The notes: generated by a model from the sequence alone, not told the origin. A stretch of 64,000 bases of DNA from Gammaproteobacteria bacterium (GCA_013150915.1 JAADJE010000031.1:11139-75138); one strand, 5' to 3'. Shown: positions 8,132 through 62,376, counted from the stretch's first letter. Made by a program: numbers and translations.

Positions 8132-8512
8132 ATGACAATGCTTGAAAACTATATACCGATTCTGGTGTTCATTGCCGTGGGCTTTATGTTCGGTGCAATG
8201 CTTATCATGTTTGGCAAGATTTTTAGCAAGTTACTGAAAGTCGATCGTCCTGGTCCCGCCAAACTGTCACCTTTTGAATGCGGCTTTGATGAATTTGAAG
8301 ACGCACGCATGAAATTTGACGTACGCTACTATCTGGTAGCCATACTGTTTATTATTTTTGACCTTGAAATAGCCTTTCTTTTTCCCTGGGCGATCGTTTT
8401 ACAGGAAGAGTCCGTCGGCATGTTCGGCTTTGTCTCAATGATGATTTTCCTTGGAATACTGGTCATTGGTTTCATATATGAATGGACAAAAGGAGCGCTG
8501 GAATGGGAGTGA
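8132..8512 (+). CDS. nuoA: NADH-quinone oxidoreductase subunit A
   Basis: 126 aa, 3 TM helices, conserved FECGF and [14 protein letters not shown] motifs. Confidence 0.9.
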
Positions 8513-9012
8513 ATAACAGCGTTGATGAGAAAGGCATCATTGAACAGGGTGTTGCTGAAAGCGGCTGGGCCACAACCACGGCAGACAGCCTGATTAATTG
8601 GGCACGCACTGGATCGATGTGGCCAGTAACCTTTGGTCTTGCCTGTTGTGCTGTCGAGATGATGCAGGCAGGTGCTGCGCGCTATGACCTTGACCGATTC
8701 GGTATTATGTTCCGACCCAGTCCCAGGCAGTCTGATGTTATGATTGTCGCGGGTACTCTTACCAACAAGATGGCTGCCCCATTACGCAAGGTCTACGATC
8801 AGATGGCAGAGCCACGCTGGGTTATCTCCATGGGGTCCTGTGCCAATGGCGGAGGCTACTACCATTATTCCTATTCTGTTGTACGCGGTTGCGATCGAAT
8901 CGTGCCTGTTGATGTCTATGTGCCAGGTTGTCCGCCGACAGCTGAAGCATTGTTATACGGCATACTGCAGTTACAGAAGAAGATACGAACCAACACCATT
9001 GCTCGTACCTGA
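8503..9012 (+). CDS. nuoB: NADH-quinone oxidoreductase subunit B
   Basis: N2 cluster ligands CCAVEMM…GSCANGGG…CPP; start assigned to ATG 8503 with AAGGAG RBS (the six-frame ORF begins earlier at 8482). Confidence 0.9.
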
Positions 9013-9015
9013 CAG

Positions 9016-9621
9016 ATGAACAACATCGAAAGACTACAGGCGCTGCAAACGCGCATTACGGAAGTTGCGGGTAGTGCTATACAGTCTACTGAAATCGAAT
9101 TCGGTGAATTGACAATCGACCTGACTGACGATTCTCTGCATGATGTCTGTAGGAAATTACTCAGTGGTGAAAACTTCGCCTTTGATACCTTGATCGATGT
9201 TTGTGCGGTTGATTATCTTCATTATCGACAGGAGGCCGGCGAAAAATGGGATAAACCTAGATTTGCCGTGGTTTATCATCTACTTTCTACCTCTCGCAAC
9301 CAGCGTTTGCGGGTTCGCGTTTTCGTTGAAGAATCCTCGCCTGTGGTCGATTCAGTTATTGATATTTGGAGTTCTGCCAACTGGTTTGAACGTGAGGCCT
9401 TCGACCTTTTCGGTATCCTTTTCAAGGGTCACCCAGATCTGCGGCGAATTCTTACAGACTATGGGTTTGTCGGGCATCCATTTCGTAAAGATTTCCCACT
9501 GTCCGGTCATGTTGAAATGTGTTACGACGAAGAAAAAGGTCGGGTAATCTATCAGCCTGTTTCCATTGAACCTCGAGTTCTTGTCCCCAGGGTAATTCGG
9601 GAGGAGGGTTACGGTGCCTGA
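9016..9621 (+). CDS. nuoC: NADH-quinone oxidoreductase subunit C
   Basis: 201 aa 30-kDa subunit (…[12 protein letters not shown]…); not fused to nuoD. Confidence 0.9.
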
Positions 9622-10867
9622 AATACGCAATTACACAATGAACTTTGGTCCGCAGCATCCAGCGGCACATGGCGTGTTGAGACTGGTGCTTGAACTGGAT
9701 GGTGAAGTGATACAACGTGCCGATCCACATATTGGCCTACTACATCGTGCTACTGAAAAACTTGCTGAGAGTAAACCCTATAATCAAAGTATTGGCTATA
9801 TGGACAGGCTCGATTATGTCTCCATGATGTCGAATGAGCATGCCTATGTGCTGGCAATAGAAAAAATGCTCGGCGTAGAAGTCCCTTTACGCGCGCAGTA
9901 TATCCGGGTCATGTTTGATGAAATTACGCGCATTTTGAATCATCTACTATGGTTGGGTACACATGGTCTGGATATTGGCGCAATGACCATGTTTCTCTAT
10001 TGTTTCAGAGAACGTGAAGACCTGATGGATATTTACGAGGCGGTATCCGGTGCACGTTTACACGCGACCTATTATCGTCCTGGCGGTGTCTACCGGGATT
10101 TGCCGGATCGTATGTCGCAGTACGAGCCATCTAAATGGCATGACCAGAAAGCCGTCGACCGCATGAATGAGAACCGCCAGGGTTCCCTGCTTGATTTCAT
10201 CTGGGATTTCACCGAACGTTTCCCTGCTCACGTCGATGAGTACGAAACATTATTAACGGATAACCGTATCTGGAAACAGCGCACCGTTGATATTGGTATT
10301 GTTTCTCCTGAACGGGCAAGAAATCTCGGCTTTACCGGGCCTATGCTACGTGCTTCAGGTATTGAGTGGGATCTACGTAAAAAACAGCCTTATGAAGTGT
10401 ATGACCGCCTGGATTTTGATATTCCTGTGGGCACTCATGGCGACAACTATGACCGTTACTTGGTGCGTATAGAAGAGTTTCGTCAATCTAATCGTATAAT
10501 TCGTCAGTGTGTTGAGTGGCTACGCAATAATCACGGTGCGGTGATGGTGGAAGACCATAAGATTGTTCCACCTAAGCGTGAATCCATGAAGCACGATATG
10601 GAAGCCCTGATCCATCACTTTAAATTATTTACTGAGGGTTTTTGTGTGCCACAGGGCCAGGCCTATGCTGCCGTTGAACACCCTAAGGGTGAATTCGGTA
10701 TCTATCTTGTATCAGATGGCGCCAACAAGCCTTATCGACTCAAGATTCGTGCCCCGGGTTTTGCGCACCTCTCTGCAATGGATGAAATGTCTAACGGACA
10801 CATGCTGGCTGATGTGGTGGCTATTATTGGTACGCTGGATATTGTTTTCGGAGAAATTGATCGATGA
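9614..10867 (+). CDS. nuoD: NADH-quinone oxidoreductase subunit D
   Basis: 417 aa 49-kDa subunit; …[10 protein letters not shown]…, …[15 protein letters not shown]… motifs. Confidence 0.92.
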
Positions 10868-11355
10868 CTGCCCAGACTTTGTCTCCCGTCGCAATAAGCC
10901 AGATCGAAAAGGAACTTGAGAAGTATCCTGCTGATCGCAGACAGTCTGCAGTAATGGCCGCCTTACGTATTGTTCAGGAAGAGTTCCGATGGATTAGCAA
11001 CGATGTTATGCAGGAGGTTGCTGACTTGCTTGGTATTCCGGCTATCCATGTCTATGAAGTGGCTACGTTTTATTCCATGTATGAGCACAAGGATGTCGGT
11101 CTATACAAGATATGTGTCTGTACCAATATTTCCTGTCAGTTACGGGGGGCGAAAGAGATACTTGACTATCTACGGAAAAAAACAGGTATCGGGCCAGGTG
11201 AAACGACTGCGGATGGGCGCATTAGCATCAAGGAAGTGGAATGTCTGGGGGCCTGCGGCGGTGCGCCAATGATGCAGGTCAATAAGGAATATCATGAAAA
11301 TCTGACACCCGACAGTATCGACAATATACTTGATGGGCTGGATAGGCATGATTGA
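10864..11355 (+). CDS. nuoE: NADH-quinone oxidoreductase subunit E
   Basis: 163 aa 24-kDa subunit; thioredoxin-like [2Fe-2S] motifs CxxxxC…CLGACxxAP. Confidence 0.9.
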
Positions 11356-12637
11356 TAAAAACAAACTGAATCTTGTCTGTTTTCGTACCCGGAATAAGGA
11401 TGAGCCATGGAGTCTGAAAACCTATCTCGAAGTAGGGGGCTATTCAGCTCTGAAAAAGATTTTAAAAGAAAAAATACCTGCTGAGGAGATTATAGAAGAG
11501 GTCAAAGCATCCGGTTTGCGTGGCCGTGGTGGTGCTGGTTTTCCAACCGGTCTTAAGTGGAGTTTTATGCCCCGCACGGCAGCGGGACAGAAATATATCG
11601 TCTGCAATTCAGATGAAGGGGAGCCGGGTACGTTCAAAGACCGCGATATCCTGCGTTATAACCCACATCAGTTGATTGAGGGCATAATTATTGCGGGATA
11701 TAGCATCGGCGCATCGGTAGGCTACAACTACATACGCGGTGAATTCTGGGAGCCCTATGAACGTTTCGACGCTGCATTGACGGAAGCGAGAGAAGCGGGC
11801 CTGCTCGGCAAAAATATTCGGGGTTCTGGTTTTGATTTTGAGCTGCATATACATCTTGGTGCAGGGGCCTATATTTGCGGTGAAGAAACGGCATTGCTGG
11901 AATCACTTGAAGGGAAAAAAGGCCAACCGCGATTTAAGCCGCCATTTCCTGCTGGTTACGGTCTCTATGGTAGACCGACAACGATAAACAATACGGAAAC
12001 CCTGGCTTCAATACCGGTGATACTGGAAAAGGGCGGTAGCTGGTTTGCGAACCTGGGTAAACCCAATAACGGCGGTACCAAGCTTTTTTCACTCTCCGGT
12101 CATGTCACTAAACCGGGCAACTATGAAGTACCGATGGGTACCCCGTTCAAAGATCTGCTTGCCTTAGCCGGTGGTGTACGCGATGGCAGGACATTGAAGG
12201 CCGTGATTCCGGGGGGATCCTCGGTTCCGGTACTGCCGGGGGATGTCATGATGGAACTGGATATGGATTATGATTCGATTGCCAGTGTTGGCTCCATGCT
12301 GGGAGCAGGGTCGGTGATCGTGATGGACGAAACGACGGATATGGTCGATGTGCTGGAACGTCTTTCCTATTTCTACTATGAAGAATCCTGTGGTCAATGT
12401 ACACCGTGCAGGGAAGGGACGGGTTGGCTGTATCGGGTGATACACCGTATAAATTCAGGTGCTGGGAAAAGTGATGATCTTGATTTGTTGACTGACATGG
12501 CCAATAACATACAGGGCCGCACTATCTGCGCACTGGGGGATGCGGCGGCGATGCCGGTAATAAGCTTCGTCACGCGATTTAGAAGTGAATTTGAAGCAAA
12601 AATTAATATTAATATTAATCGAAAAGCAACGGCCTGA
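11348..12637 (+). CDS. nuoF: NADH-quinone oxidoreductase subunit F
   Basis: FMN/NADH-binding [10 protein letters not shown] and [13 protein letters not shown]3 cluster [10 protein letters not shown]; start taken as the ATG overlapping the nuoE stop (ORF track begins 18 nt earlier). Confidence 0.9.
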
Positions 12638-12661
12638 AGAAATCAGACAGGCACAAAAGAC

Positions 12662-15007
12662 ATGGTATCAATAGAAATTAACGGACAAAAGATAGAAGCA
12701 GAAGCAGGATCGATGTTGATCAGGGCGGCTGATGCAGCGGGTATTTATATCCCGCGATTCTGTTATCACGATAAGTTGTCCATTGCGGCGAACTGCCGTA
12801 TGTGTCTGGTCGAAGTAGAAAATGCACCGAAGCCGCTACCTGCCTGTGCCACACCCATTACGGATGGCATGAAGGTAGAAACACGGTCTGAACTGGCGCG
12901 TGCCGCACAGAAAAGCACCATGGAATTCCTGCTCATTAATCACCCACTGGATTGTCCGATCTGTGATCAGGGTGGTGAGTGCGAGCTACAAGATTTAGCC
13001 GTTGGCTACGGCAAAGATGTCTCACGTTTTTCTGAAGGTAAACGTGTTGTGTTCGATAAGAATTTAGGCTCACTGATTTCCACAGACATGACACGTTGTA
13101 TTCAGTGTACTCGCTGTGTACGTTTTGGCCAGGAAATAGCAGGCATTATGGAACTGGGCATGGTAAACCGTGGTGAACACAGTGAGATTATGACCTTTAT
13201 GGGACAGGCCGTCTGTTCTGAAATGTCGGGTAATGTCATTGATTTATGTCCGGTCGGTGCACTGACCTCCAAACCCTTTCGTTTCAAGGCGCGCAGTTGG
13301 GAAATGCAAGACCATGATGGCATCGCTGTTCACGATACCGTGGGTTCAAATGTCACAGTCCAGACACTACGTGGTGAGGTGTTACGTGTCTTACCGCGGG
13401 AGAATGAAGATATAAACCAGGAATGGTTATCAGATCGTGACCGTTTCAGTTACACCGCATACAAATCAGAGCAGCGTTTGACCACGCCTATGCTGAAGAT
13501 CAACGGTGAATGGAAAGAGGCCGACTGGCAGACAGCACTGGATAATGTCTCCAGTAAGCTGAAGAAGATTGTTGATGAATATGGCGCCGACAGCATTGGT
13601 GCACTGGCCTCGCCGACCGCCACGCTGGAAGAATTTTCCTTGCTGGCGAAATTGATGCGAGGATTGGGTAGCCAGAATATGGACTACCGTCTGCGCCAGC
13701 AGGATTTCAGGGCCGATGGCGCAATGTCTGCACCCTTACTGGGGGACAGTATTGTCAGTCTTGAATGCGCTAAAACTGTGTTACTGATAGGCAGTAATAT
13801 CCGTAAAGAGCAGCCTGTACTGGCAACGCGTCTACGCAAAGCAGCAAGAAAAGGCGCTAGTATTAGCGCTATCAACAGCACAAAATTCGATTTTGCCTTC
13901 CCGTTACAGGTCAATATTAGTGTTTCTCCATCATCCTTAGTGGCCACACTGGCCCGACTTGCTGTCATCGTTGCAGCGAAAAAGAAGGTGCCTACCAGTG
14001 GTACTGTGGAAGATATTGCTGAGTCATGTCCCGCGAATAAAGAATTAGAAGGACTGGCAGACAGCTTGATTGAAGCCGGTAATGACGGACAAATTATTGT
14101 TGGTTCGATGGCACAGATGGATGGCAATTATTCTCTGTTAGTCGCACTGGCTACGATTATCGGAAATATCAGTGAAGTCAAATTCGGGAGGCTGGAAGAG
14201 GGTAACGCGGTAGCGGCCTGGCAGGCATCGTTCCTGCCCTTTGCCGACAGGGGCACAGTCGGTAAGAATGCCACTGAGATGTTAAACCCGGCCCTGAAAG
14301 CCTGTTTGTTATTTAATATCGAACCATCCTTGGATTGCATTGCAGGCAATAGTGCGCTTGATGCCTTACGTGAGACGGGCATGCTCATCCATATCGGCTG
14401 TTATCGCAGTGAGGAAATTGAAGAGCTCGCACATGTCATGCTGCCATTAGCTTCTGTTTTTGAGAGTGATGGAACACACGTCAATTGTGAAGGTAATATG
14501 CAAAGCTGGAAAGCGGCAGTACATCCACAGGGTGAAGCAAGGCCTGGTTGGAAAATACTGCGCGTGCTGGCGAATTATCTTGACCTGGATGGTTTTAACT
14601 ATACATCAAGTGAAACTGTTCGAGACGAAGCTAGCCCCCTTATCAGCACAACAAAAAGAACAGCCAGTATGGATGTCTATGCCCCTGTACTTGTTGAACA
14701 GAATAGGTTGGCGTGTATCTCTCATCTTCCTTTATATCGTATTGATCCCTTTACGCGCCGCTCACAGCCGTTACAACAGACGCTGGACAATCCACCTGCA
14801 GCAGCGGGTATGCACCCGGATACCCTGGCATCTATGGGTATCGATGACGGTATCACGGTAGAACTGGCAAATGGAGGTGGGAAAATTGATATCAGTGTGT
14901 ATGCCAGTACATCAATACCGTTGAACTGCATCTTGCTGCCAACGGCACTGCAGGAAACCGCCGCATTAGGTAATGCAAACTGGTTGGAGGTGAAGTCCCG
15001 TGCCTGA
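12662..15007 (+). CDS. nuoG: NADH-quinone oxidoreductase subunit G
   Basis: 781 aa; N-terminal 2Fe-2S and 4Fe-4S cysteine clusters, molybdopterin-oxidoreductase-like fold. Confidence 0.92.
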
Positions 15008-16058
15008 ATGGATACTCTATTTGCTTGATTTCCTCCCCGATTGGGACTGGTTGCATGTTCTGCTTATCGCACTCATCAAGGTGGTGGCGATCTTCATACC
15101 CCTGGTTGTGGCGGTTGCCTATTTACCCTATGCGGAGCGAAAAATCATTGGCTATATGCAGATCCGTATCGGACCCAATCGGGTAGGCCCCAGGGGATGG
15201 CTGCAACCGATTGCGGATGCACTGAAGCTGATTCTTAAAGAAATCATCGTTCCAACTAAATCCAATAAATATCTGTTCATACTGGCACCGATACTGGCTA
15301 TGGGGCCAGCCATTGCTGTCTGGTCTGTAATTCCCTTTACTGACACATTGGTACTGGCTGACATCAATGCGGGTCTGCTGTTTGTCCTTGCCGTGAGCTC
15401 CATCGGTGTCTATGGCATCATCATTGCCGGTTGGGCATCCAATTCAAAATATGCATTTCTCAGCGCCATGCGTGCCTCTGCTCAGATTGTCTCCTATGAA
15501 CTGGCGATGGGTTTTGCGCTGGTAACGGTACTGATGGCGGCAGGTAGCCTGAACCTGCGTGAAATCGTTCTGGCACAGAGCGGGGGGTTAACAAACTGGT
15601 ATCTCTGGCCACTATTCCCGATGTTCATGGTGTACTTTATTTCAGGCGTTGCCGAAACCAATCGTGCACCTTTTGATGTGGCTGAAGGTGAATCAGAGAT
15701 TGTTGCAGGCTTTCATGTTGAATATTCCGGCATGACCTTTGCTGTTTTCTTCCTGGCGGAATACGCGAACATGATATTGATAGCTACCCTGACATCACTG
15801 ATGTTTCTCGGTGGCTGGATGTCACCATTTGGTGCGGCATCGGATATTATAATTCTTGGTGATGGCATTCATTGGCTGTTGCTGAAAACCAGTTTTTTAT
15901 TGTTCTTCTTCCTCTGGTTCCGGGCGACATTCCCGCGTTATCGCTATGACCAGATTATGCGCCTGGGCTGGAAGGTCTTTCTTCCGCTGACAATTTTCTG
16001 GATTGTTTTTATGGGTGTCATGATGTTTCTTACGCCATGGGGTTACCTGTTTCATTAG
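15000..16058 (+). CDS. nuoH: NADH-quinone oxidoreductase subunit H
   Basis: 352 aa, 8 TM helices; [21 protein letters not shown] motif. Confidence 0.92.
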
Positions 16059-16068
16059 GGGGGGCATA

Positions 16069-16560
16069 ATGATAAAAAAAGCAATTTATACCATTAAGAG
16101 TCTATTCCTGATCGAGTTGATGAAGGGTTTGTCCGTAACGGGCAAACACCTGTTTAAAAGAAAGATCACGGTGCAGTATCCTGAAGAAAAAACACCAATG
16201 TCTTTCCGTTTTCGTGGTTTGCATGCACTGCGCCGCTATCCGAATGGCGAAGAACGCTGTATTGCCTGTAAATTGTGTGAGGCAGTATGTCCGGCCCTGG
16301 CAATAAAGATAGATTCTGAAGTCAGAGAGGATGGCTCACGCCGCACAAAAAGATACGATATTGATTTAACGAAGTGCATATTCTGCGGTTTCTGTGAAGA
16401 GGCCTGCCCTGTAGATGCCATCGTCGAAACGCGTGTGTTTGAATATTTCGGCGAAAAAGCAGGTGATCTTTATTACACCAAGGACATGTTGCTGGCTGTT
16501 GGAGACCGCATGGAAGCAAGTATTGCAAGCGACAGGAAACAGGATGCCGTTTACCGGTAG
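16069..16560 (+). CDS. nuoI: NADH-quinone oxidoreductase subunit I
   Basis: Two ferredoxin-type motifs [12 protein letters not shown] and [12 protein letters not shown]. Confidence 0.92.
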
Positions 16561-16584
16561 CTGTATGAAGGTATATAAAAACCT

Positions 16585-17190
16585 ATGACATTTGAACAAC
16601 TGGTATTTTATTTTCTCGCATCGGTAGCCGTGATAGCGGCTGGCCTGGTGATTACCGTACGTAACCCGGTACGGGCAGCCTTGTTCCTGATTCTGACATT
16701 TTTTACAGTAGCCGTGATCTGGTTATTACTGGAAGCAGAATTTTTAGCCATTGTGCTGGTGCTGGTATATGTCGGCGCAGTAATGGTGTTGTTCCTGTTT
16801 GTGGTGATGATGCTTGATATTGATACTGATCAGCTACGAGAAGGCTTTGCTGAATACTTGCCCATCGGTGCGACAGTGGCAGTCATCATACTGCTGCAAC
16901 TGGTTATCGTTTTCAGTTTCGGCCCTTTTGATCTAGAACAGATGCCGGCTCCAGCCGCAGCGGCTGTTGACTACAGCAACACACACCAGCTGGGCCTGTT
17001 GCTCTACACATACTATGTTTACCCATTTGAACTGGCGGCAGTTTTACTGCTGCTGGCAATGGTTGCAGCTATTGCTTTGAGCCTGAGAGGGCGCCTGTCT
17101 GCAAAACGGCAGAGACCAGATGCCCAGGTGCGTGTCCGTAAAGAAGACCGTTTACGCATAGTGAAAATGAATGCTGAGAAGCAGGACTGA
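16585..17190 (+). CDS. nuoJ: NADH-quinone oxidoreductase subunit J
   Basis: 201 aa membrane protein, conserved NuoJ N-terminal helices. Confidence 0.9.
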
Positions 17191-17245
17191 CCGGGGTTTA
17201 CTCACATGGGTTTACGGACAAAGGATAAATGACCAGGACTTTATA

Positions 17246-17551
17246 ATGATTGCTTTATCAGACTATTTGATACTAGGCGCCATACTGTTCTCGATTAGTG
17301 TGACCGGGATCTATTTGAACAGGAAAAATGTCATCATCCTGCTAATGTCTATCGAGTTGATGCTGCTCTCAGTCAATCTCAACTTTATTGCCTTTTCGTA
17401 TTATTTGAATGATCTGGCAGGACAGGTCTTTGTGTTTTTTATCCTTACCGTAGCGGCAGCAGAATCTGCAATTGGCCTGGCCATAATCATTGTTCTATTT
17501 CGGCGCAGGCATACCATTAACATCGAAGATTTGGACAGTTTAAAGGGATAG
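17246..17551 (+). CDS. nuoK: NADH-quinone oxidoreductase subunit K
   Basis: 101 aa from the internal ATG ([15 protein letters not shown]…); the longer 17171 ORF start would overlap nuoJ and add a non-conserved leader. Confidence 0.88.
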
Positions 17552-17552
17552 C

Positions 17553-19532
17553 ATGATGGATGACATGAAACTCATTTATCTAGCAATCCCATTAGTGTGT
17601 TTGTTTGCTGCACTGATAGCGGGAGTCTTTGGGCGCCAGATTGGCCGTGTTGGGGCACACAGTATCACCGTGGCGGGTGTAGCAGTAGCCTTTGCCCTAT
17701 CGCTCTATGTCTATCTAGATGTGATTGCAGGCAATACATTCAATGGCACTATATATATCTGGGGTGTCAGTGATAACTTTCCCTTTGAAGTGGGCTTTCT
17801 GATTGATAGCCTGACTGCCACCATGATGGTGGTAGTGACCTTTGTTTCACTGATGGTACATATCTACACCATTGGTTATATGCGTGATGATCCGGGCTAT
17901 CAGCGTTTCTTTAGCTATATCTCCTTATTCACTTTTGCAATGCTTATGCTGGTGATGTCGAATAACTTCCTGCAGTTGTTCTTTGGCTGGGAACTGGTCG
18001 GGCTAGTTTCCTATCTATTGATCGGTTTCTGGTATACCCGAGAGACCGCAATTTACGCGAACATGAAGGCGTTTTTGGTCAACCGTATTGGTGACCTTGC
18101 CTTCCTGATTGGTATCGCTGCGATATATGCCACATTTGGTACGCTGGACTACAGTGCCGTTTTTGCCTCAGTACCGGAAGTACTCGGGCAGACCATTGAA
18201 ATTCTGCCAGGCAGTGAATGGAGCATCATTACCTTTATCAGTATCCTGTTGTTCATTGGAGCCATGGGAAAATCAGCCCAGGTTCCATTACATGTCTGGC
18301 TACCTGATTCAATGGAAGGTCCGACACCTATCTCTGCATTAATCCACGCAGCGACTATGGTGACCGCTGGCATATTCATGGTGGCACGTACCTCACCCAT
18401 ATTTGAATTTTCAGAAACTGCATTGAGTGTGGTGATGATCATCGGTGCGATCACAGCATTTTTCATGGCCTTACTTGGTCTGGTACAAAACGACATCAAG
18501 CGTGTTATTGCTTACTCAACATTGTCACAGTTGGGTTATATGACAGTAGGTCTTGGCGCATCGGGCTATGCGGCATCCATTTTCCATCTAGGCACCCATG
18601 CGTTTTTCAAAGCGCTGCTTTTCCTCGCTGCAGGCTCTGTCATAATCGCCATGCACCATGAGCAGGATATGCGCAAAATGGGAGGGCTTAGGAAGTTTCT
18701 GCCCTGGACTTATATCACGGCAGCGATTGGCTCACTGGCACTGGCTGGTATTCCACCCTTTGCTGGATTCTTCTCCAAGGACATGATCATTGAAAGCGTA
18801 CACCAATCAGAGTTATTCGGTTCCGGTATCGCCTATGCAGCCGTACTGAGCAGTGTAGTACTGACCGCCTTTTATTCTTTCCGTTTAATGTTTATGACAT
18901 TCCATGGTCGCCCACGTATGGATCAGCATACGTTGCAGCACCTGAAAGAATCACCAATGGTCATTGTACTGCCCTTACTGCTTTTGGCGATTCCTTCCGT
19001 GATCGCAGGTGCCTTATTTATTAATCCTATGGTTTTTGGTGATTACTTTTCGGGTGCAATTTTTGTTTTACCACAGCATGATGTAATCGGCGCGATTGCG
19101 GAAGACTATCAGGGGAAATCAGACCTGGCAGTTGTGTTCAGCTTTATGTTTCACGGTATTCTTCAGCCGCCATTCTGGCTGGCTATCAGCGGCATATTTC
19201 TTGCGTGGCTGTTTTATATTCGACTACCGGAATTGCCGGGTAAGGCCGTTGCATTAGTCAAGCCTCTGTATAGCCTGTTGATGAATAAATATTACATTGA
19301 CGAATTTAACCAGAAATTCCTCGCTAACGGTACGGTTGGTGTGGGTCGTCTCTTGTCAAAATTCGGCGATACGATATTTATCGATGGCTGGCTTGTGAAC
19401 GGTACTGCAAAAGTGATTGGCTATTTCTCAAGAGCATTAAGGCCACTGCAGTCGGGACTGGTCAATCACTATGCTTTTGCCATGATAATCGGTCTATTGG
19501 TACTGATGACCTGGTTTGTACGAATTAATTAA
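17553..19532 (+). CDS. nuoL: NADH-quinone oxidoreductase subunit L
   Basis: 659 aa antiporter-like subunit with long C-terminal extension (lateral helix). Confidence 0.92.
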   Translation: MMDDMKLIYLAIPLVCLFAALIAGVFGRQIGRVGAHSITVAGVAVAFALSLYVYLDVIAGNTFNGTIYIWGVSDNFPFEVGFLIDSLTATMMVVVTFVSLMVHIYTIGYMRDDPGYQRFFSYISLFTFAMLMLVMSNNFLQLFFGWELVGLVSYLLIGFWYTRETAIYANMKAFLVNRIGDLAFLIGIAAIYATFGTLDYSAVFASVPEVLGQTIEILPGSEWSIITFISILLFIGAMGKSAQVPLHVWLPDSMEGPTPISALIHAATMVTAGIFMVARTSPIFEFSETALSVVMIIGAITAFFMALLGLVQNDIKRVIAYSTLSQLGYMTVGLGASGYAASIFHLGTHAFFKALLFLAAGSVIIAMHHEQDMRKMGGLRKFLPWTYITAAIGSLALAGIPPFAGFFSKDMIIESVHQSELFGSGIAYAAVLSSVVLTAFYSFRLMFMTFHGRPRMDQHTLQHLKESPMVIVLPLLLLAIPSVIAGALFINPMVFGDYFSGAIFVLPQHDVIGAIAEDYQGKSDLAVVFSFMFHGILQPPFWLAISGIFLAWLFYIRLPELPGKAVALVKPLYSLLMNKYYIDEFNQKFLANGTVGVGRLLSKFGDTIFIDGWLVNGTAKVIGYFSRALRPLQSGLVNHYAFAMIIGLLVLMTWFVRIN

Positions 19533-19547
19533 TGAGACCGCCCTTAC

Positions 19548-21029
19548 ATGTTTGAAGTTAATCAATTAAGCCTCGCGATCTGGTTGCCGATAATCGGTGG
19601 TATTGCGGTGTTAACAATAGGTAATGATCAACACGCAGCACGGGTAAGGGTGGTTGCTTTGCTGGTCAGTATTGCAACATTCCTGGTAACACTGCCGCTG
19701 TATATCAGCTTCGACAAAACAGTGGGCGAGATGCAGTTTATCGAACATCTTCGGTGGATACCGGCACTGAATATAAATTATTCTCTGGGGATAGATGGTA
19801 TTGCTCTGTTACTGATCCTGTTAACGGCTTTTATTACCATTATTGTAGTGATATCTGCCTGGCAAGTGATTCAGGAGAAGGTGGCACAATACATGGCAGC
19901 CTTCCTGATTATGGAAGGGCTAATGATAGGTGTGTTTTCAGCCACTGACGCCATTTTATTTTATGTTTTCTGGGAAGCTATGTTGATACCCATGTTCCTG
20001 ATTATTGGTATATGGGGTGGGCCGAACAGGATTTACGCCACGATAAAGTTCTTCCTCTATACCCTGCTTGGTTCATTATTAATGCTGGTGGCGCTAATCT
20101 ATCTTTACGTCAAAAGTGGCAACAGTTTCGCGCTTGCCGATATGTATGCCGTGAAGCTCAACCTAACTGAGCAGATATGGTTGTTTGCCGCATTTTTCAT
20201 GGCCTTTGCCGTCAAAATACCAATGTTCCCAGTGCATACCTGGCTGCCTGATGCGCATGTTGAGGCTCCCGCAGGCGGTTCTGTGGTGCTGGCGGCAATT
20301 ATGTTGAAGATGGGCGCCTACGGCTTTATCCGATTCAATTTACCCATCACTCCAGATGCCAGTCACAGCCTATCAGGTGTCATTATTGCTCTGTCACTAA
20401 TCGCTATAGTCTATATCTCCATGGTTGCACTGGCGCAGACAGACATGAAGAGATTGATTGCCTACTCGTCGATCGCACACATGGGGTTTGTCACGCTGGG
20501 TTTGTTTGTGTTTAACAAGATGGCGGTGGAAGGTGCGATCATCCAGATGATCTCGCACGGTTTTATCTCCGGGGCAATGTTCCTTTGTGTCGGCGTGCTC
20601 TATGATCGTATGCACACACGGAAGATGAGTGACTATGGTGGCGTGGCGAATACGATGCCTAAATTTGCAGCATTTATGATGTTTTTTGCAATGGCCAATG
20701 TTGGCCTGCCGGGGACTTCCGGTTTTGTCGGTGAGTTCCTGGTGATATTGGGTGTCTTCCAGGTTAACGCATGGTACGCAATCATCGCTGGCACGACTTT
20801 GATTCTGGGGGCGGCCTACACTTTGTGGATGTATAAACGGGCCATTTATGGTGCCGTGAGCAATGACATGGTTAAGGCGCTAAAGGATATCAACAGCAGA
20901 GAAGGTTTCTTCCTGCTGATACTTACTCTTAGTGTACTCATCATGGGGCTATGGCCGGCGCCATTCCTGGAAATCATCCATACTTCTGTCGACAAGCTGC
21001 TTACGCTTTCGGCAGTAAGCAAACTGTAA
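19548..21029 (+). CDS. nuoM: NADH-quinone oxidoreductase subunit M
   Basis: 493 aa; HTWLPDAHVEAPAGGS motif. Confidence 0.92.
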   Translation: MFEVNQLSLAIWLPIIGGIAVLTIGNDQHAARVRVVALLVSIATFLVTLPLYISFDKTVGEMQFIEHLRWIPALNINYSLGIDGIALLLILLTAFITIIVVISAWQVIQEKVAQYMAAFLIMEGLMIGVFSATDAILFYVFWEAMLIPMFLIIGIWGGPNRIYATIKFFLYTLLGSLLMLVALIYLYVKSGNSFALADMYAVKLNLTEQIWLFAAFFMAFAVKIPMFPVHTWLPDAHVEAPAGGSVVLAAIMLKMGAYGFIRFNLPITPDASHSLSGVIIALSLIAIVYISMVALAQTDMKRLIAYSSIAHMGFVTLGLFVFNKMAVEGAIIQMISHGFISGAMFLCVGVLYDRMHTRKMSDYGGVANTMPKFAAFMMFFAMANVGLPGTSGFVGEFLVILGVFQVNAWYAIIAGTTLILGAAYTLWMYKRAIYGAVSNDMVKALKDINSREGFFLLILTLSVLIMGLWPAPFLEIIHTSVDKLLTLSAVSKL

Positions 21030-21039
21030 CGGTTAGTCC

Positions 21040-22488
21040 ATGAGCAATATATTCGCAGACATCCAGCTTGCCACTCCCGAAATTTTCGTGTTTTCTATGG
21101 CTTGTGTAATCCTGTTGCTCGACAAAGTCACCCATGAACGTATGCCAAAGGCGAGTTTTTTACTGACACAGCTTACTCTGCTTGTGGGTTTATACCTGGT
21201 TACGATCACCGTTCCGGAAGGAGGCTCGATAAAGGCATTCAATGATATGTTTGTCCTTGATGGTATGGCGGTGCTGAGTAAACAGGTTATTCTTTTCCTG
21301 ACATTCGTCGTGCTCATTTACTCCTATTCGTATATTACTGAACGCAAGATGTATCGCGGTGAGTATTTTGTCCTGATCCTGAATGCAGTGCTCGGAATGA
21401 TGGTAATGACTTCAGCCAGTCATTTCTTAACCATTTATATTGGCCTTGAGTTATTATCATTGTCGCTCTATACACTTGTTGCTATGAACCGTGATTCTGA
21501 TCTAGCAACTGAAGCGGCGATGAAATATTTTGTCCTGGGTGCTCTGGCCTCCGGCCTTTTGCTCTATGGTATGTCGATGATCTACGGTGCAACAGGTAGC
21601 CTCGATATAGAAACCATCAGAAGCGCCATACAGGGAATGGAATCAGATGATACCATGCTGATTCTTGGGCTTGTTTTCATTATAGTGGGAATTGGCTTCA
21701 AGCTTGGTGTCGTACCCTTCCACATGTGGATACCCGATATCTATCAGGGTGCGCCGACTTCGGTTGTTCTGTTCCTGGGGACTGCTCCCAAGGTTGCCGC
21801 ATTTGCCTTTATCATGCGTTTGTTAGTGGATGGTTTTCAGGGTCTTGCTGAAAACTGGTCTGATATGTTGACTATCATTGCCGTGCTCTCTATGGCGACG
21901 GGTAATATACTGGCAATAATTCAGACCAACCTGAAGCGCATGCTGGCTTACTCAACTATTTCTCATATGGGCTACTTCCTGCTGGGTATACTGAGTGCTA
22001 ATCCAAATGGATACAGTGCATCCCTTTTCTATGTCATTGTTTATTCGTTCACCAGTCTGGCGGCATTTGGTCTTATTATTATGATGTCACGAGCTGGGTT
22101 TGAAGCAGAAGAAATTAGTGATTATAAGGGATTGAATAAGCGACACCCGTGGTTTGCGTTTCTGGTAGCCCTGGTTATGTTTTCCATGGCCGGAATACCA
22201 CCGACTGTTGGGTTCTTTGCCAAGTTATCCGTTATTCAGGCTCTAATAGATGTAGAAATGTACTGGCTTGCTGTTGTTGCAATACTGTTTGCAGTTATCG
22301 GCGCCTACTATTACCTGAGAATTATCAAAACTGTGTACTTTGACAAACCAGAAAGAAATGAGCCGATAACGGCCAGGTTTGGCATGCAGTTCGTACTAAG
22401 TGCGAATGTGTTTGCACTGGTGCTCATTATGCCATGGATCGGTGTAATAATGGATGCTGTCAGTAACGCAATCAGTGCCATGGGGTAA
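21040..22488 (+). CDS. nuoN: NADH-quinone oxidoreductase subunit N
   Basis: 482 aa; FHMWIPDIYQGAP motif. Confidence 0.92.
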   Translation: MSNIFADIQLATPEIFVFSMACVILLLDKVTHERMPKASFLLTQLTLLVGLYLVTITVPEGGSIKAFNDMFVLDGMAVLSKQVILFLTFVVLIYSYSYITERKMYRGEYFVLILNAVLGMMVMTSASHFLTIYIGLELLSLSLYTLVAMNRDSDLATEAAMKYFVLGALASGLLLYGMSMIYGATGSLDIETIRSAIQGMESDDTMLILGLVFIIVGIGFKLGVVPFHMWIPDIYQGAPTSVVLFLGTAPKVAAFAFIMRLLVDGFQGLAENWSDMLTIIAVLSMATGNILAIIQTNLKRMLAYSTISHMGYFLLGILSANPNGYSASLFYVIVYSFTSLAAFGLIIMMSRAGFEAEEISDYKGLNKRHPWFAFLVALVMFSMAGIPPTVGFFAKLSVIQALIDVEMYWLAVVAILFAVIGAYYYLRIIKTVYFDKPERNEPITARFGMQFVLSANVFALVLIMPWIGVIMDAVSNAISAMG

Positions 22489-22538: not shown

Positions 22539-22880
22539 GTGGTTACGAATATCATAAGCAAAGCAAAATATGCATTAGTTATTTCTGTACTATTGTTAGC
22601 TGTCAGCGGCTGCTCCAGTTATGGTGCTGCGAAGATACAATCCATACCTTCAGGTGCTGAAGTCGTGAATCTTGAAGATGATTCATTGTTAGGGACTACC
22701 CCTGTGATGATTCACTGGAAAAATGACCGCGAAGAATCAAAGCTTATCACGGTACGTTTTCATAAAGCCGGATATAACGACAAAGTGACAGCATTCTGGG
22801 TCAATATGCGCCATGGTTCCCGAGCAGATGCTGAAAAAGAACCACAGCCAGTTAAGGTTGAGTTGAAGCCGAAAAAGTAG
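22539..22880 (+). CDS. small lipoprotein with PEGA-like domain
   Basis: GTG start; signal peptide with lipobox LAVSGC; PEGA-like signature IPSGAEVV…LGTTP…KAGY. Confidence 0.55.
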   Translation: MVTNIISKAKYALVISVLLLAVSGCSSYGAAKIQSIPSGAEVVNLEDDSLLGTTPVMIHWKNDREESKLITVRFHKAGYNDKVTAFWVNMRHGSRADAEKEPQPVKVELKPKK

Positions 22881-22891
22881 GACAGTGTGAT

Positions 22892-23254
22892 ATGAAACCA
22901 ACGTTTATTTTCTTTTTACTTTCTATATTACTGCTTTTATCTGCCTGCAGTAGCACGCCTAAAGTAATACCACTAAAGGTCTACTCCGAGCCTGCGGGGG
23001 CTTATGTAATTTATCGCATAAGCCGCACTTCTACAGATGCCCCCTGGGTGTATCTTGGAACCACACCACTGGAATCCGCTTTACAGCTTAATAGTGATAT
23101 GGCTAAGAATTCCAGTAAACTCAGTGTTCGTGTTATGAAAGAAGGGTATTTTGATATCAAGAAGGAATGGGATGCTGAAAAGCTCAAAAAAGAATCTAAA
23201 CAGAGAAAAATGCTATTCTGGAATCCAAGTCTGGTTGAACATCAGGTGAGGTGA
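22892..23254 (+). CDS. small lipoprotein with PEGA-like domain (paralogue of preceding gene)
   Basis: Signal peptide with lipobox LLSAC; PEGA-like signature EPAGAYVI…LGTTP…KEGY. Confidence 0.55.
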   Translation: MKPTFIFFLLSILLLLSACSSTPKVIPLKVYSEPAGAYVIYRISRTSTDAPWVYLGTTPLESALQLNSDMAKNSSKLSVRVMKEGYFDIKKEWDAEKLKKESKQRKMLFWNPSLVEHQVR

Positions 23255-29893: not shown

Positions 29894-30163
29894 ATGGCCT
29901 TGAATGCAGAAACAAAGGCGCAGATTGTTGAAGAATATCAGACCGGTACAACAGATACCGGTTCGCCAGAAGTACAGGTTGCCCTGATGACCGCACGGAT
30001 CACTGATCTGACCGGCCATTTTAAAGAGCATATCCATGATCATCATTCACGACAGGGTTTGTTGCGTCTGGTAAGCAAGCGTCGTAAATTGCTTGATTAT
30101 CTTAAAAGTCGCGATTCAGAACGCTATCGTAATTTAATTTCACGTCTAGGTCTGCGTAAGTAA
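29894..30163 (+). CDS. rpsO: 30S ribosomal protein S15
   Basis: 89 aa, near-complete match to bacterial S15 (…[16 protein letters not shown]…[15 protein letters not shown]…). Confidence 0.93.
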
Positions 30164-30234: not shown

Positions 30235-32330
30235 TTGAAAAAGGTAAGCAAGTCATTTCAGTACGGTGAGCACACCGTCACGTTGGAAACAGGTGAAATT
30301 GCACGTCAGGCCGATGCCGCAATTATTGCGAGCATGGAAGACACAGTTGTTCTGGTCACAGTGGTTGGTGCTAAAAGTGCCCGTCCCGGACAGGATTTCT
30401 TTCCACTTACAGTCGATTACCAGGAAAAAGTCTTTGCAGCCGGTCGTATTCCGGGTGGTTTCTTCCGCCGCGAAGGTCGTCCCTCTGAAAAGGAAATTCT
30501 AATCTGTCGTCTGATTGACCGGCCTATGCGCCCTTTATTCCCAAAGGGGTACGTGAATGAGGTGCAAATCATCTGCACAGTCATTTCAATCAATCCTGAT
30601 ATTGATCCTGATATCATCGCTATGCTTGGTACCTCAGCAGCATTGGCCACTTCAGGGCTGCCGTTCAATGGCCCGGTTGCTTGTGCTCGTGTTGGATACA
30701 TCGACGGTGAATATGTGCTCAATCCCGGCGCTGAGGCACTAAAAGATTCAGACCTTAACCTGGTTGTTGCAGGCACTGAAAGTGCTGTTTTGATGGTTGA
30801 ATCTGAAGCAAAAGTCTTATCAGAAGAAGTTATGCTTGGTTCTGTCATGTATGGTCATGAACAATCAAAAATAGCAATCAAAGCAATCCGTGAACTGGCA
30901 GCAGAAGTAAATACTGATGTACGTGAATTTGTTGCAGCGGAGAAAGATGAGGCACTGGCTGAAAAAGTTTCGGCTATCGGTAAAGTGGGTTTTGAAGAGG
31001 CCTACAGCATAGCTGAAAAGATGTCTCGTCAGGATAAATGCTCATCAGTACGCAGTCTGATCATGGATGAACTGACAAACGAAGAAAGCACATCCGAAGA
31101 TATTGAAAAAATCTCGGGTGCGATAAAGGGACTTGAGAAATCGATCGTCCGCGGCCGTATCCTTGATGGTCAGCCACGTATCGATGGTCGTGGCACACGC
31201 ACTATCCGTCCTATTACAATTCGTACAGGCGTACTGCCACGCACCGATGGTTCAGCCCTGTTTACCCGTGTGAAACCCAGGCACTGGTCGTCACCACACT
31301 CGGTACGGAGCGTGATTCACAGATTATTGATGCGCTGGAAGGGAGTTACCGTGATCCCTTCATGCTGCATTACAATTTCCCGCCCTACTCGGTTGGTGAA
31401 ACGGGCCGAGTAGGTAGCCCCAAGCGTCGAGAAATTGGACACGGTAAATTGGCCAAGCGTGCCGTTGCTGCCGTCATTCCGACTCTGGAAGAATTCCCTT
31501 ATGTGATTCGTGTAGTCTCTGAGATAACAGAAAGTAATGGTTCAAGCTCAATGGCCACTGTCTGCGGAGCATCACTTTCGATGATGGATGCGGGTGTAAA
31601 AACCAAAGCACCTGTTGCGGGTGTTGCCATGGGGTTGATCAAAGATGGCGACAAGTTCGCCGTACTGTCAGACATCCTCGGTGATGAAGATCATCTTGGC
31701 GACATGGATTTCAAAGTAGCCGGTACGACTGAAGGTATAACCGCGCTGCAAATGGACATCAAGATCGAAGGCATCACGCGTGAGATCATGGAAATCGCTC
31801 TGAGTCAGGCTAAAGAAGGCCGTGAGCACATTCTTGGTGAGATGGCTAAAGTTATTGAAGCCCCGCGTGAAGAAATGTCTGATTATGCCCCGCGCATTAT
31901 CACCCTGAAGATACCTACGGACAAGATTCGTGACGTTATTGGTAAAGGGGGTTCAACCATCCGCTCAATCTCTGAAGAGACGGGTGCAACGGTTGATATT
32001 CAGGATGACGGTACGGTTAAGATCGGCTCAATCGATAATGCCGCTGGGCAGGAAGCAAAACGTCGCATCGAACAGATCACGGCCGATGTTGAAGTCGGAA
32101 CAATCTATGAAGGCAAGGTCGCCAAATTGATGGACTTTGGTGCTTTTGTAACTATTCTGCCGGGCAAAGACGGTCTGGTACATATCTCACAGATCTCTCA
32201 CGAGCGTGTAGAGAAAGTTAGCGATAAGTTGTCTGAAGGTGATGTGATCAAGGTAAAGGTGCTTGAGGTAGATCGCCAGGGCCGCATACGCTTGAGTATG
32301 AAGGCCATCAGCGATGAAGATGCGGCCTGA
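30235..32330 (+). CDS. pnp: polynucleotide phosphorylase (PNPase); reading frame interrupted by an apparent 1-nt deletion near 31270 (two ORFs 30235-31413 and 31362-32330)
   Basis: TTG start with GAGGA RBS as in E. coli pnp; N-terminal ORF matches PNPase RNase-PH domain 1 up to …GSALFTR, after which the continuation [44 protein letters not shown]… is in the +1 frame; second ORF carries RNase-PH domain 2, KH and S1 domains. Confidence 0.8.
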
Positions 32331-32360
32331 TTGCTGATCAAAAAGTTGTTTAAGATATTA

Positions 32361-32386
32361 TAAAAAAGGCCGCGAGGTCTTTTTTT
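32361..32386. terminator. bidirectional intrinsic terminator between pnp and dksA
   Basis: AAAAAAGGCC-GCGA-GGTCTTTTTTTT: A-tract/GC stem with GNRA loop/T-tract, symmetric on both strands. Confidence 0.5.
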
Positions 32387-32567
32387 TAGTGAATGCTGTG
32401 GACTCAAACTCAAACAGCCTAATACAACAGAAATGTTACTATTGGGGCACCGTTTTTTCGTTCCCGCAGCAGGCAGGCGGTGTCAACAAAATCGCCATCT
32501 CGCAGTTTTATGCGCTTTCGTGAATAGGGATTGCGAAACAGCCATACCGATGTGAATGGCATGGTGT

Positions 32568-37904: not shown

Positions 37905-38202
37905 TTAAGGCAGGAGCGTCGTCTCATCCGGCACCGGTTCCTGGCCAAGGTCAATACCAACAAATGAACAGATCGCCCTGGAACCATATAAGGCTTCTTC
38001 TGCTACAGGGTCGAATAAAGCAAACCAGTGCTGAAGAAAATGAATACGACGCATTCTTTCAAGACCCACTGTCTACCTGCTTGATGACCTGACACAGTTC
38101 TTTTCGGGGAGTGATCTGTTCCCTGTCTTTGAGAAATAGTTCTTTATGTGTTGGTTTGCAGTATTCCTCAAACCCATCGGTATTTTGGGATTGTTGGCGC
38201 AT
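37905..38202 (-). mobile_element. IS5-family transposase pseudogene fragment (N-terminal ~115 codons, internal stop plus frameshift)
   Basis: Minus-strand translation from ATG 38202: MRQQSQNTDGFEEYCKPTHKELFLKDREQITPRKELCQVIKQVDSGS*, then in the +1 frame RMRRIHFLQHWFALFDPVAEEALYGSRAICSFVGIDLGQEPVPDETTLLP*. Collinear with E. coli IS5 InsH residues ~30-115 (…EIFLSRMEQILPW…[24 protein letters not shown]…LPDRTTIMNF…). Truncated directly against the hom stop codon. Confidence 0.7.
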
Positions 38203-38335
38203 GGTTATTTCGCTGTCTGTTGGGATAGCGTATTATCGCATTTAATCGGAATTAATCAGAGATTCCTTAGCTTTATCTCCCGTTTCGCCCTTCTGATACT
38301 TATTTCTCTTTTTTAATTTTCAGGAGGATACAATT

Positions 38336-43665: not shown

Positions 43666-44619
43666 TTATTTCCAGGCATTTCTCATCATGGCGATGCCAT
43701 GTGCGCCATGTGATTGCATTTCTGTAAGGTGATCATCAGTCATACCACCCAGGGCATATACTGGAATCGGGTATTCAGCAATTATTTTACTCATGCCGGT
43801 AATCCCTATGGGCATTGCATCGGGGTGTGATGCCGTTTTTAATATCGGTGACAGTACTACGAAATCCAGTTCGAGTTTAACTGCCTGGTTCAACTCCGCT
43901 AGATTATGACAGGATCCAGCTACAAGCTCAAAATCCGGGCGTTGATCGAGCTTCATTAAGTGGAGACTGGTCAAATGGATACCGGAAAAATATTTTCTTT
44001 GTGCGACAGGTATTGCAGAATTAATCAGGGTGGTCACGCCTGCAGGTTCAGTAACAGACAGTACTCGATCCACCAGTTGTTCCAGTTGACAGGGAGGCAT
44101 GTTTTTCTCACGTATTTGTAACATGCGCAGACCATTTTCAATTGCCTTAGGTAAATACCCCATAAATTTTTCTTCACCGATTTCGCCCGCACAGGATATG
44201 GCGTAGGTGTTGGGCAGCAGTAAGGCACGAATGATCGCTTCATTGGCTGCCAGCAGTGGGGATATTGTTAGTTGTGAAAGGTTCTGCCAGGAAAGTCTCT
44301 GACCCTCTTCACCGTGCTCATGACCTGTCCAGGCCGTGACGATGAAGAAGTGCAGTAACACTGATGCATGCGGATAGCTGTGGGCCAGGGTAACCCAGGG
44401 CCTGGCTTCTGTGATACTAATCGCCAATTCTTCCCTGATTTCCCTGTCCAGTGCCTGACGGGCCGATTCACCCGCTTCGATTTTTCCACCAGGGAATTCC
44501 CATTCTCCCGCACAGGCTTTTCCTGAAGGTCTTTCAGCGAACAGTACCTTGCCATCTCCACGTTTGATAATGGCAACGGCAACATCTTTGCACAATGGAG
44601 TATTCGTTACAGCAGCCAT
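43666..44619 (-). CDS. mutT: Nudix hydrolase (MutT-like 8-oxo-dGTP diphosphatase) fused to a thiamine-phosphate-synthase (ThiE/TenI)-like domain
   Basis: N-terminal Nudix box GEWEFPGGKIEAGESARQALDREIREELAI; C-terminal ~190 aa TIM-barrel ThiE-like (…LQIREKN…, …ALGGM… motifs); same fusion as in pseudomonad MutT. Confidence 0.8.
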   Translation of the reverse strand: MAAVTNTPLCKDVAVAIIKRGDGKVLFAERPSGKACAGEWEFPGGKIEAGESARQALDREIREELAISITEARPWVTLAHSYPHASVLLHFFIVTAWTGHEHGEEGQRLSWQNLSQLTISPLLAANEAIIRALLLPNTYAISCAGEIGEEKFMGYLPKAIENGLRMLQIREKNMPPCQLEQLVDRVLSVTEPAGVTTLINSAIPVAQRKYFSGIHLTSLHLMKLDQRPDFELVAGSCHNLAELNQAVKLELDFVVLSPILKTASHPDAMPIGITGMSKIIAEYPIPVYALGGMTDDHLTEMQSHGAHGIAMMRNAWK

Positions 44620-59708: not shown

Positions 59709-59723
59709 TCAGGAGTCTCCTTA

Positions 59724-61553: not shown

Positions 61554-61861
61554 CCTTTCAACTCTGCCGCTTCTTCCATTTCCACGGAGCCTTTGGCGCG
61601 GAAGCGTGCAATGGCTACGCCGAATCCCACCGCCATCTCTATCGCCATCACGGTCATTATGATCAGTACGAACATTTGACCGGCAGGGTTGTCCGGGTGC
61701 AGGTAGCGCCAGAATGCGACCAGGTTGACCATGGCTCCGGCAAGAATCAGTTCTATCCCCATCATGATCATCACCAGATTGGTCTGCGACAGTGCACCAT
61801 AGATGCCGACACCAAACAGCGCGGCGCCAGTGATTAGTGCGAGAAGAAGTTCAATACTCAT
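61550..61861 (-). CDS. complex I-like subunit NuoK/ND4L-like
   Basis: 103 aa, 3 TM; conserved glutamates in TM2/TM3 (MGIELILAG…AIEMAVG). Confidence 0.75.
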   Translation of the reverse strand: MSIELLLALITGAALFGVGIYGALSQTNLVMIMMGIELILAGAMVNLVAFWRYLHPDNPAGQMFVLIIMTVMAIEMAVGFGVAIARFRAKGSVEMEEAAELKG

Positions 61862-62376
61862 TGTTCACGAGTCCTTTTAACAGGTTGTATGGCCACCGCC
61901 GTAGCAGCAATCATGGCGGTAAGAATGGTGATTCCGGCAGTTTCAAAAATCAGCATTGAACGACCCAGCAGTTCAAGGCCCAGATCTATAGTCTGTTGTG
62001 CAGCATCCGGTGAAACGCTGGCCACAGGTCCCCAGTCGACAAATACGGCTACGGCCACGGCGGCCACGAAGGAAACAATTCCGGCGCCTAAGGAGAGGCG
62101 CTTCTGATGAGTCATGTCCATCTCACCAAGTCCGCCGGGATCCATCATGAACATCACCATAAAAATAGCCATGATGCTCATTTCAGTGGCCATCATCATG
62201 ATTTGTAATACGCCGAGGAACTCCGCCTGCATACTCAGAAACATCGCACCAAGAGCCGTCTGAGAGAAAAGCAGAGCCAGCGCAGAACGTACCATCGAAA
62301 ACGTGCGGAAAACAACGATACCGAACCACACTCCGGCGAGTCCGAAGAAACCAATGAAGAACATTTGAGCAGTCAT
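61858..62376 (-). CDS. complex I-like subunit NuoJ/ND6-like
   Basis: 172 aa; N-terminal helices align with nuoJ of the first operon (…SQTALGAMFLSMQAEFLGVLQIMMMATEMSIMAIFMVMFMM…). Confidence 0.7.
   Translation of the reverse strand: MTAQMFFIGFFGLAGVWFGIVVFRTFSMVRSALALLFSQTALGAMFLSMQAEFLGVLQIMMMATEMSIMAIFMVMFMMDPGGLGEMDMTHQKRLSLGAGIVSFVAAVAVAVFVDWGPVASVSPDAAQQTIDLGLELLGRSMLIFETAGITILTAMIAATAVAIQPVKRTREQ

Follow-up and report, generated by a model that had tools for sequence, protein, structure and literature searches.

A one-base frame break in the pnp gene of a gammaproteobacterial metagenome contig and the intact gene of its conspecifics

The pnp gene (30235-32330, + strand) in a 64,000-nucleotide stretch of gammaproteobacterial DNA, here called the window, is not read in a single frame, and this raises the question of whether the organism has lost its PNPase, makes it in two pieces or is misrepresented by the assembled sequence. 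All three explanations were offered in an initial annotation that placed the break at about 31270. This position is confirmed, because the frame changes between 31269 and 31270. The N-terminal ORF (30235-31413) has a TTG start, encodes 392 amino acids and is PNPase-like up to codon 345 (cgt, ending at 31269), after which come 47 out-of-frame codons (VKPRHWSS...) and a stop at 31411-31413. The frame from 31272 contains the conserved PNPase continuation and remains open until the stop at 32328-32330. With the intact orthologue P0004 as tblastn query, residues 1-345 matched frame 1 with 91% amino acid identity and residues 347-698 matched frame 3 with 97.7%. Judged by this similarity of the two halves to an intact orthologue, the split in pnp is no chance pattern of ORFs.

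Addition of one G at the break (cgt/Ggtgaa) gives a PNPase of 698 amino acids, in agreement with the length of about 698 that had been predicted for a repair by one nucleotide. In a Pfam scan the repaired protein contains RNase_PH (twice), RNase_PH_C, PNPase, KH and S1, every family above its gathering score, and this five-family architecture is present only once the one-base repair has been made. As written, the gene does not have the single uninterrupted ORF of about 700 amino acids by which PNPase is recognised but two ORFs of 392 and 322 amino acids that overlap by 52 nt. Repair of the frame by the ribosome needs a -1 (or +2) shift. The missing G is one of two adjacent G, which makes the site a minimal run of 2 nt and not strictly non-homopolymeric; of the earlier description of the site as non-homopolymeric, what stands is that there is no long run. 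The features of the locus are collected in Table 1.

Table 1. Coordinates in the window of the two parts of pnp, the altered positions and the adjoining features
Feature	Position	Strand	Remarks
rpsO (ribosomal protein S15), conserved upstream neighbour of pnp, intact	29894..30163	+	
pnp codons 1-345, TTG start: RNase PH domain 1, alpha-helical PNPase domain and first strands of RNase PH domain 2	30235..31269	+	Original frame; 91% amino acid identity to P0004
GGC codon, Gly for the usual Asp/Asn in RIDGR(D/N) (D320G)	31192..31194	+	Common to the conspecific contigs
GAT codon, Asp for His338 (PRTHGS motif)	31246..31248	+	Only on this contig; 24 nt upstream of the deletion
Missing-G site, cgt/gtgaa; relatives have cgtGgtgaa or cgcGgcgaa	31269..31270	+	From alignments
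pnp codons 346 (remaining bases gt) to 698 and stop: remainder of RNase PH domain 2, KH and S1	31270..32330	+	Displaced frame without a stop; 97.7% amino acid identity to P0004 (347-698)
Out-of-frame tail of the N-terminal ORF, ...KRAE, 47 codons and stop	31270..31413	+	Identical to the tail of database protein P0121
Downstream ORF called by the JGI pipeline, 322 amino acids, starting at PNPase Met377 and lacking the first ~50 residues of RNase PH domain 2	31362..32330	+	Equals P0253
GC-rich hairpin followed by a T run just past the pnp stop, likely intrinsic terminator (putative)	32359..32388	+	Inverted repeat I1 and sequence

The break is accompanied by a second change in the same part of the gene. 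The strand HGSALFTRGETQ, invariant at the start of the second RNase PH domain (PH2), is not preserved in the window, where His338 is replaced by Asp and the frame breaks between R345 and G346. His is found at the residue-338 column in all homologues with a residue there (119/119) and in the aligned PDB PNPases, and its replacement (H338D) is due to a C-to-G change in a codon that reads CAT in two conspecific contigs, L103 and L111. A literature search found no publication on residue 338 of PNPase. The possibility that the replaced His is the catalytic H403 of E. coli PNPase was rejected, since the alignment with PDB sequences places it at residue 338 in PRTHGS, and H403 belongs to the RREIGHG motif, which is intact in the window. 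Residues R398, R399, H403, S437-S439, D486, D492 and K494 are all present, with the same numbering, in the repaired protein. Catalytic or RNA-binding roles have been described for these PH2 residues in E. coli (PMC2723993, PMC5416783).

An unusual Gly was found at a third position, D320G, where all 119 homologues with a residue in the column have Asp or Asn. It was dropped as a third lesion because the intact conspecific genes have the same Gly, which makes it a trait of the species that does not belong to the lesion; from the comparison of sequences it appears to be a tolerated change at species level. The only radical changes specific to the window in 2.1 kb are H338D and the deletion. Two lesions 24 nt apart fit one local event or error better than gradual decay.

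Comparison with other contigs shows that the defect is confined to this one assembled sequence and that the species has an ordinary pnp. Metagenome contigs were scanned with the 21-mer between the two suspicious positions. The scan returned 24 contigs, all of which (24/24) have G-G at the break site. The nucleotide identity to the window is 98.55% over 14 kb for L103 (VAPH01045334.1) and 98.5% over 18.7 kb for its near-twin L111 (IMG 3300003886, contig Ga0063293_10000971). The IMG data set derives from TVG10 hydrothermal sediment of the South Mid-Atlantic Ridge and is an IDBA-UD assembly of HiSeq 2000 reads (PMC6946796). The two contigs, which come from a hydrothermal-sediment sample, both read ...CACC CAT GGTTCAGCCCTGTTTACCCGT G GTGAAACC... 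and encode an intact pnp product of 698 amino acids, and the window reads ...CACC GAT ...CGT - GTGAAACC... at the same stretch.

The presence of an intact gene in L103 and L111 means that pnp is normal in the species, and that the break arose either as a defect of assembly or sequencing or as a very young knockout at strain level. These contigs come from another strain and another sample than the window (98.5% identity), and their intact state is supportive, not decisive. A comparison with pnp of close relatives had been called for in the initial annotation, and its outcome is uniform: the G is present in both conspecifics and in all six relatives aligned at the nucleotide level, which have CGTGGTGA or CGCGGCGA vs CGT-GTGA in the window.

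The pnp ORF is continuous in the conspecifics and in 120 relatives among the matches listed. Amino acid identity of pnp is 92-95% across the genus-level clade, and the full-length homologues among the matches listed are all intact. The nearest named relatives among these matches are MAGs labelled Arenicellales or Gammaproteobacteria and 'bacterium BMS3Abin11/BMS3Bbin11', and the relatives are free-living, from hydrothermal sediment and sulfide deposits. The sister species, with 88% nucleotide identity over 12 kb, has an intact pnp in the same gene order (nuoN...rimP-nusA-infB-rbfA-truB-rpsO-pnp), and the conserved placement of rpsO-pnp downstream of nusA-infB-rbfA-truB is also found in the window.

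Close species differ in the order of the genes that follow pnp (32331 onward, compared with L081-L086). In the window, in its conspecifics and in L001 these are dksA, a HAD hydrolase and an aminotransferase, and in the sister species (88%) an ORF for 116 amino acids rich in Thr is followed by msrQ-like, msrP-like and COX15 genes. At position 32433, between the pnp terminator and dksA, the window cleanly lacks a segment of 407 bp that L103 and L111 carry (8965-9370 in L111). This segment encodes a protein of 74 amino acids with a signal-peptide-like N-terminus (MKKNHSQITVLSLVLLFAPGQALA...) and no Pfam match, and it represents strain-level variation in gene content adjoining pnp.

If pnp had been without function for some time, traces of relaxed selection would be expected. 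Relative to L103, 20 codons of pnp differ synonymously and 8 nonsynonymously, and the corresponding numbers for ten neighbouring genes together are 91 and 24. In the 352 codons after the break the differences are 14 synonymous and 1 nonsynonymous, and at this lone nonsynonymous site the window keeps the ancestral state, as seen in the nearest outgroups P0001 and P0004, the change having arisen in the other strain. Had constraint been lost during an appreciable part of the 1.5% divergence, nonsynonymous changes would form the majority of the new ones. In a relative-rate test with the sister species (P0004) and three outgroups, there were 16 vs 10 lineage-specific replacements, which is not significant (chi-square 1.4), and these replacements are conservative with the exception of H338D. 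Thus neither relaxed selection nor several dispersed lesions were found in pnp by the L103 codon comparison and the relative-rate test, the lesions being confined to 24 nt. With no relaxation of selection on the gene, the lesion is either evolutionarily instantaneous or not real.

The remainder of the window was searched for other signs of decay. It had been suggested that frameshifted housekeeping genes be sought genome-wide; within the 64-kb window no broken gene other than pnp was found, some 60 further genes being apparently full-length. The nine genes from nuoN to rpsO all align with a relative over their whole length. Full-length family matches were obtained for greA, ftsH, folP, glmM, tpiA, secG, nuoA-N, nusA, infB and truB, among others, and further for dksA, hom, zwf, glk, the glucoamylase and a second complex-I-like cluster. 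The coding density is high, and no repeats of at least 25 nt were found in the window.

When the window is compared with L111 over 18.7 kb there are 281 substitutions and eight indel events, and the pnp deletion is the sole coding one of these. The other five small indels (32340, 32469, 35120, 35146 and 38308) are all intergenic and consist of homopolymer or tandem length changes (+AA, +GCAG, +TT, -G and -T). About 300 bp on the - strand (37905-38205) is a remnant of the N-terminus of an IS5-type transposase (Pfam DUF772, E = 2e-8), which is frameshifted and truncated and abuts the stop of the homoserine dehydrogenase gene. Approximately 244 nt of the spacer with this remnant is missing from L111 (alignment gaps of 165 and 79 nt at 37926-38187). 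No further IS elements were found in the 64-kb window, and the remnant shows strain-level flux, not genome decay. The earlier proposal that a recent pseudogene would be consistent with IS scars thus agrees with one IS5-type remnant but finds no other IS element, repeat or broken gene in 64 kb on its side.

Other features of the window were noted in passing. Besides the complete nuoA-N operon at 8132-22488, there is a second complex I / Mrp-like cluster at 56872-64000 (- strand) with three Proton_antipo_M proteins, NuoK-, NuoJ- and NuoH-like proteins and a 49-kDa-like subunit. It adjoins the glucoamylase gene (54472-56865), glk, zwf and a short 6PGD-like gene. A single ORF at 43666-44619 (- strand) encodes both a NUDIX domain (residues 14-131) and a thiamine-phosphate synthase (TMP-TENI) domain (residues 139-313). 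Two small ORFs of 113 and 120 amino acids, located between nuoN and tRNA-Met (22539-23254, + strand), have no Pfam or NCBIfam match and show 94% and 87% amino acid identity in the sister species.

The origin of the sequence bears on how the break should be understood. A protein search with the N-terminal ORF, tail included, gave P0121, a 100% identical protein of 392 amino acids from one JGI contig of 83,215 bp. The 322-amino-acid downstream ORF, P0253, is from the same contig, and both are singletons among approximately 15 billion proteins. Their location on one JGI contig indicates that the window comes from a metagenome-assembled contig and not from a finished genome.

The missing G (31269/31270) and the C-to-G change (His338Asp) are probably defects of this one metagenome contig, which would most likely have entered together, and not a property of the species. 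Erroneous reads or an erroneous consensus might be responsible, or the assembler might have followed a rare defective haplotype through a single graph bubble, which is feasible because a single k-mer length spans both changes. An artefact or unfixed variant of this kind, rather than a fixed mutation, is the explanation that we favour with moderate confidence. By the same measure, the pnp of the organism is probably an ordinary PNPase gene, selectively maintained in its nusA-infB-rbfA-truB-rpsO-pnp context. The lesion is seen on one contig only and is absent from the two conspecific assemblies. Indel errors occur at about 1 per 100 kb in short-read metagenome assembly, and this rate probably exceeds the chance that a strongly conserved core gene is a fixed pseudogene in one strain.

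Losses of one base at the same pnp codons were also found in contigs from two unrelated bacteria, GGGG to GGG in L112 (ENA NODE_61677, coverage 3.2x) and CCC to CC in L113 (Logan SRR31481330_15798). The sequences at these losses are ACCCGGGTGAAACC and ACCGGGGTGAAACC, and the out-of-frame tails resemble that of the window. The occurrence of these losses in public contigs shows that such breaks do arise in assemblies, and the two contigs were probably found only because the query held the out-of-frame tail. For the same reason a mutational hotspot, considered on account of database proteins with a similar tail (P0144, P0151 and P0163), was rejected, as these were retrieved because the query included the tail.

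However, the contig is clean in other respects, which speaks against an artefact. Five of the six small indels relative to L111 are intergenic, like real polymorphism filtered by selection, and this avoidance of coding sequence implies that error indels are rare in the contig. A contig of 83 kb implies reasonable coverage, in which case two consensus errors 24 nt apart would be uncommon. The strain also has real structural differences from its conspecific in the IS5-type remnant and the gene-sized indel of 407 bp, so genuine strain-specific change does occur in the region. The assembly or sequencing error put forward in the initial annotation is considered the most likely reading.

The main alternative is that the break is a genuine and very recent loss-of-function allele of pnp, carried by the dominant strain of the sampled population. 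One mutational event, for example in an error-prone repair tract, would then have made both the H338D transversion and the -1 deletion and cut PNPase short within the catalytic second RNase PH domain. Survival of the strain would be possible because PNPase is dispensable when other 3'-exoribonucleases are present. Deletions of pnp in E. coli are viable and cold-sensitive, and are lethal only in combination with the loss of RNase II or RNase R; null mutants of pnp are viable in other bacteria as well. The description of pnp as an essential-type gene was thus an overstatement. If the DNA is as written, it would constitute a null or severely crippled pnp allele, which need not be lethal.

Several observations agree with a genuine allele: the break is present in the deposited sequence, in which the JGI pipeline recognised two genes, the contig has a considerable length, and its other small indels behave as real polymorphisms and not as random errors. 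Two damaging changes in a short tract are also what is expected of a multi-nucleotide mutation, and the strain differs from its conspecific by the IS5-type remnant (37905-38205) and the missing 407-bp segment at 32433. On the other hand, the allele is absent from both conspecific contigs, and the codons after the break have gained no nonsynonymous change, which would require an allele that is extremely young and yet dominant. It would also have arisen in a gene that is highly conserved in the genus-level clade and intact in the full-length homologues among the matches listed, in a strain with no other pseudogenes in 64 kb. We consider this alternative possible but the less likely of the two. 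Somewhat more doubtful still is the specific case of a natural PNPase-null strain of an uncultured hydrothermal gammaproteobacterium, belonging to the Arenicellales-labelled clade that includes 'bacterium BMS3Bbin11', in which one repair event produced a knockout that is dominant in one sample. The rise of such a strain could be due to selection on RNA decay or biofilm formation. No relevant report of a natural pnp pseudogene emerged from a literature search.

Other origins of the lesions were also considered. A chimeric join at the break was rejected because of the equal divergence from the conspecific on both sides, which is 1.45% before and 1.42% after the site. The intact allele has an inverted repeat of 7 nt (GTGGTGA...TCACCAC), and inspection by eye for a quasi-palindrome or template-switch origin showed that the deletion weakens and does not perfect it. 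Slippage between the similar 9-mers ACCCATGGT and ACCCGTGGT, which hold the two lesions, would remove 24 nt and not 1, and neither the repeat nor the 9-mers provide a mechanism.

Far less probable than either explanation above is a break that is functional, with the frame restored by the ribosome or the RNA polymerase (-1 frameshift or slippage) or with PNPase working in two pieces. Both halves are stop-free and highly conserved, and the two ORFs overlap; however, the conservation of both halves is also explained by a very young lesion. No slippery heptamer of the type X_XXY_YYZ was found in the zero frame at 31150-31413, and no homopolymer of at least 6 nt is present near the break. The RNA of the region 31255-31360 folds no better than shuffled sequence (MFE -28.1 kcal/mol vs a shuffle mean of -29.2, z = 0.28). 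The shifted arrangement is conserved in none of the conspecifics or the 120 relatives among the matches listed, which have an uninterrupted gene. Recoding is unsupported when heptamer, run, structure and conservation are all lacking, and programmed frameshifting and transcriptional slippage were rejected on these grounds.

The suggestion that the organism tolerates a split PNPase fares no better, since the cut falls inside the second RNase PH domain, and the downstream ORF, which begins at Met377, is without the RIDGR and HGSALFTRGETQ strands. The only Shine-Dalgarno-like motif of this ORF is GGGAG at 31340-31344, which is poorly spaced, as it lies 17 nt before the ATG. Least probable is that pnp has long been a pseudogene in a genome that is decaying, host-restricted or IS-ridden, because apart from the one IS5-type remnant the lesions are confined to 24 nt of a gene otherwise under normal purifying selection, the conspecifics are intact, the other ORFs are full-length Pfam matches in densely coding DNA with no repeat of at least 25 nt, and the relatives are free-living. 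Recoding and long-standing decay together account for only a very small part of the probability.

An artefact or unfixed variant thus remains the preferred explanation, and its biological weight is small. The practical value lies in the procedure: when a core gene of a metagenome contig is frameshifted, conspecific contigs and reads should be consulted before decay or a split enzyme is inferred, and here the comparison with conspecifics shows a normal pnp in the species. Were the lesion confirmed by reads, the strain would represent a documented natural knockout of pnp among free-living bacteria of chemosynthetic habitats, of modest interest for the dispensability of RNA-decay enzymes in nature.

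By sequence, architecture and context, this pnp is an ordinary member of the PNPase family, from which it departs only in ORF continuity and in the HGSALFTRGETQ strand, and only in this contig. The repaired protein of 698 amino acids has the same order of domains as bacterial PNPase (Pnp, EC 2.7.7.8; E. coli, PDB 3GCM/3CDI/7OGK), namely PH1, alpha-helical domain, PH2, KH and S1. Its PH2 region aligns without gaps to residues 306-540 of E. coli PNPase (E ~1e-116), and in E. coli pnp is likewise located directly downstream of rpsO. The window differs in that its frame is interrupted at codon 345/346, His338 is Asp and a Gly is found in RIDGR(D/N).

Neither of the two explanations that survive is new in kind, as assembly indels and strain-specific frameshift pseudogenes are both well known. 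Like indel errors and minor-variant paths in short-read assemblies, the break is an isolated loss of 1 nt in a short G run on a single contig, and comparable losses are found at the same codons in public contigs of low coverage. Unlike these, the run is only 2 nt, a second substitution lies nearby, the contig is long and there is no other coding indel in the comparison with L111. Young strain-specific frameshift pseudogenes of free-living bacteria also have one disrupting indel that is polymorphic within the species, alongside strain-level differences such as the IS remnant and the gene-sized indel seen here. In contrast to them, pnp is a strongly conserved core gene of RNA decay and not an accessory gene, and selection on it is not relaxed. 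The likeness to programmed frameshifting (dnaX, -1; prfB, +1) and transcriptional slippage is superficial, consisting of one protein encoded in two overlapping frames, whereas the window lacks the heptamer, the stimulatory structure, the A/T run and the conserved shift of those systems.
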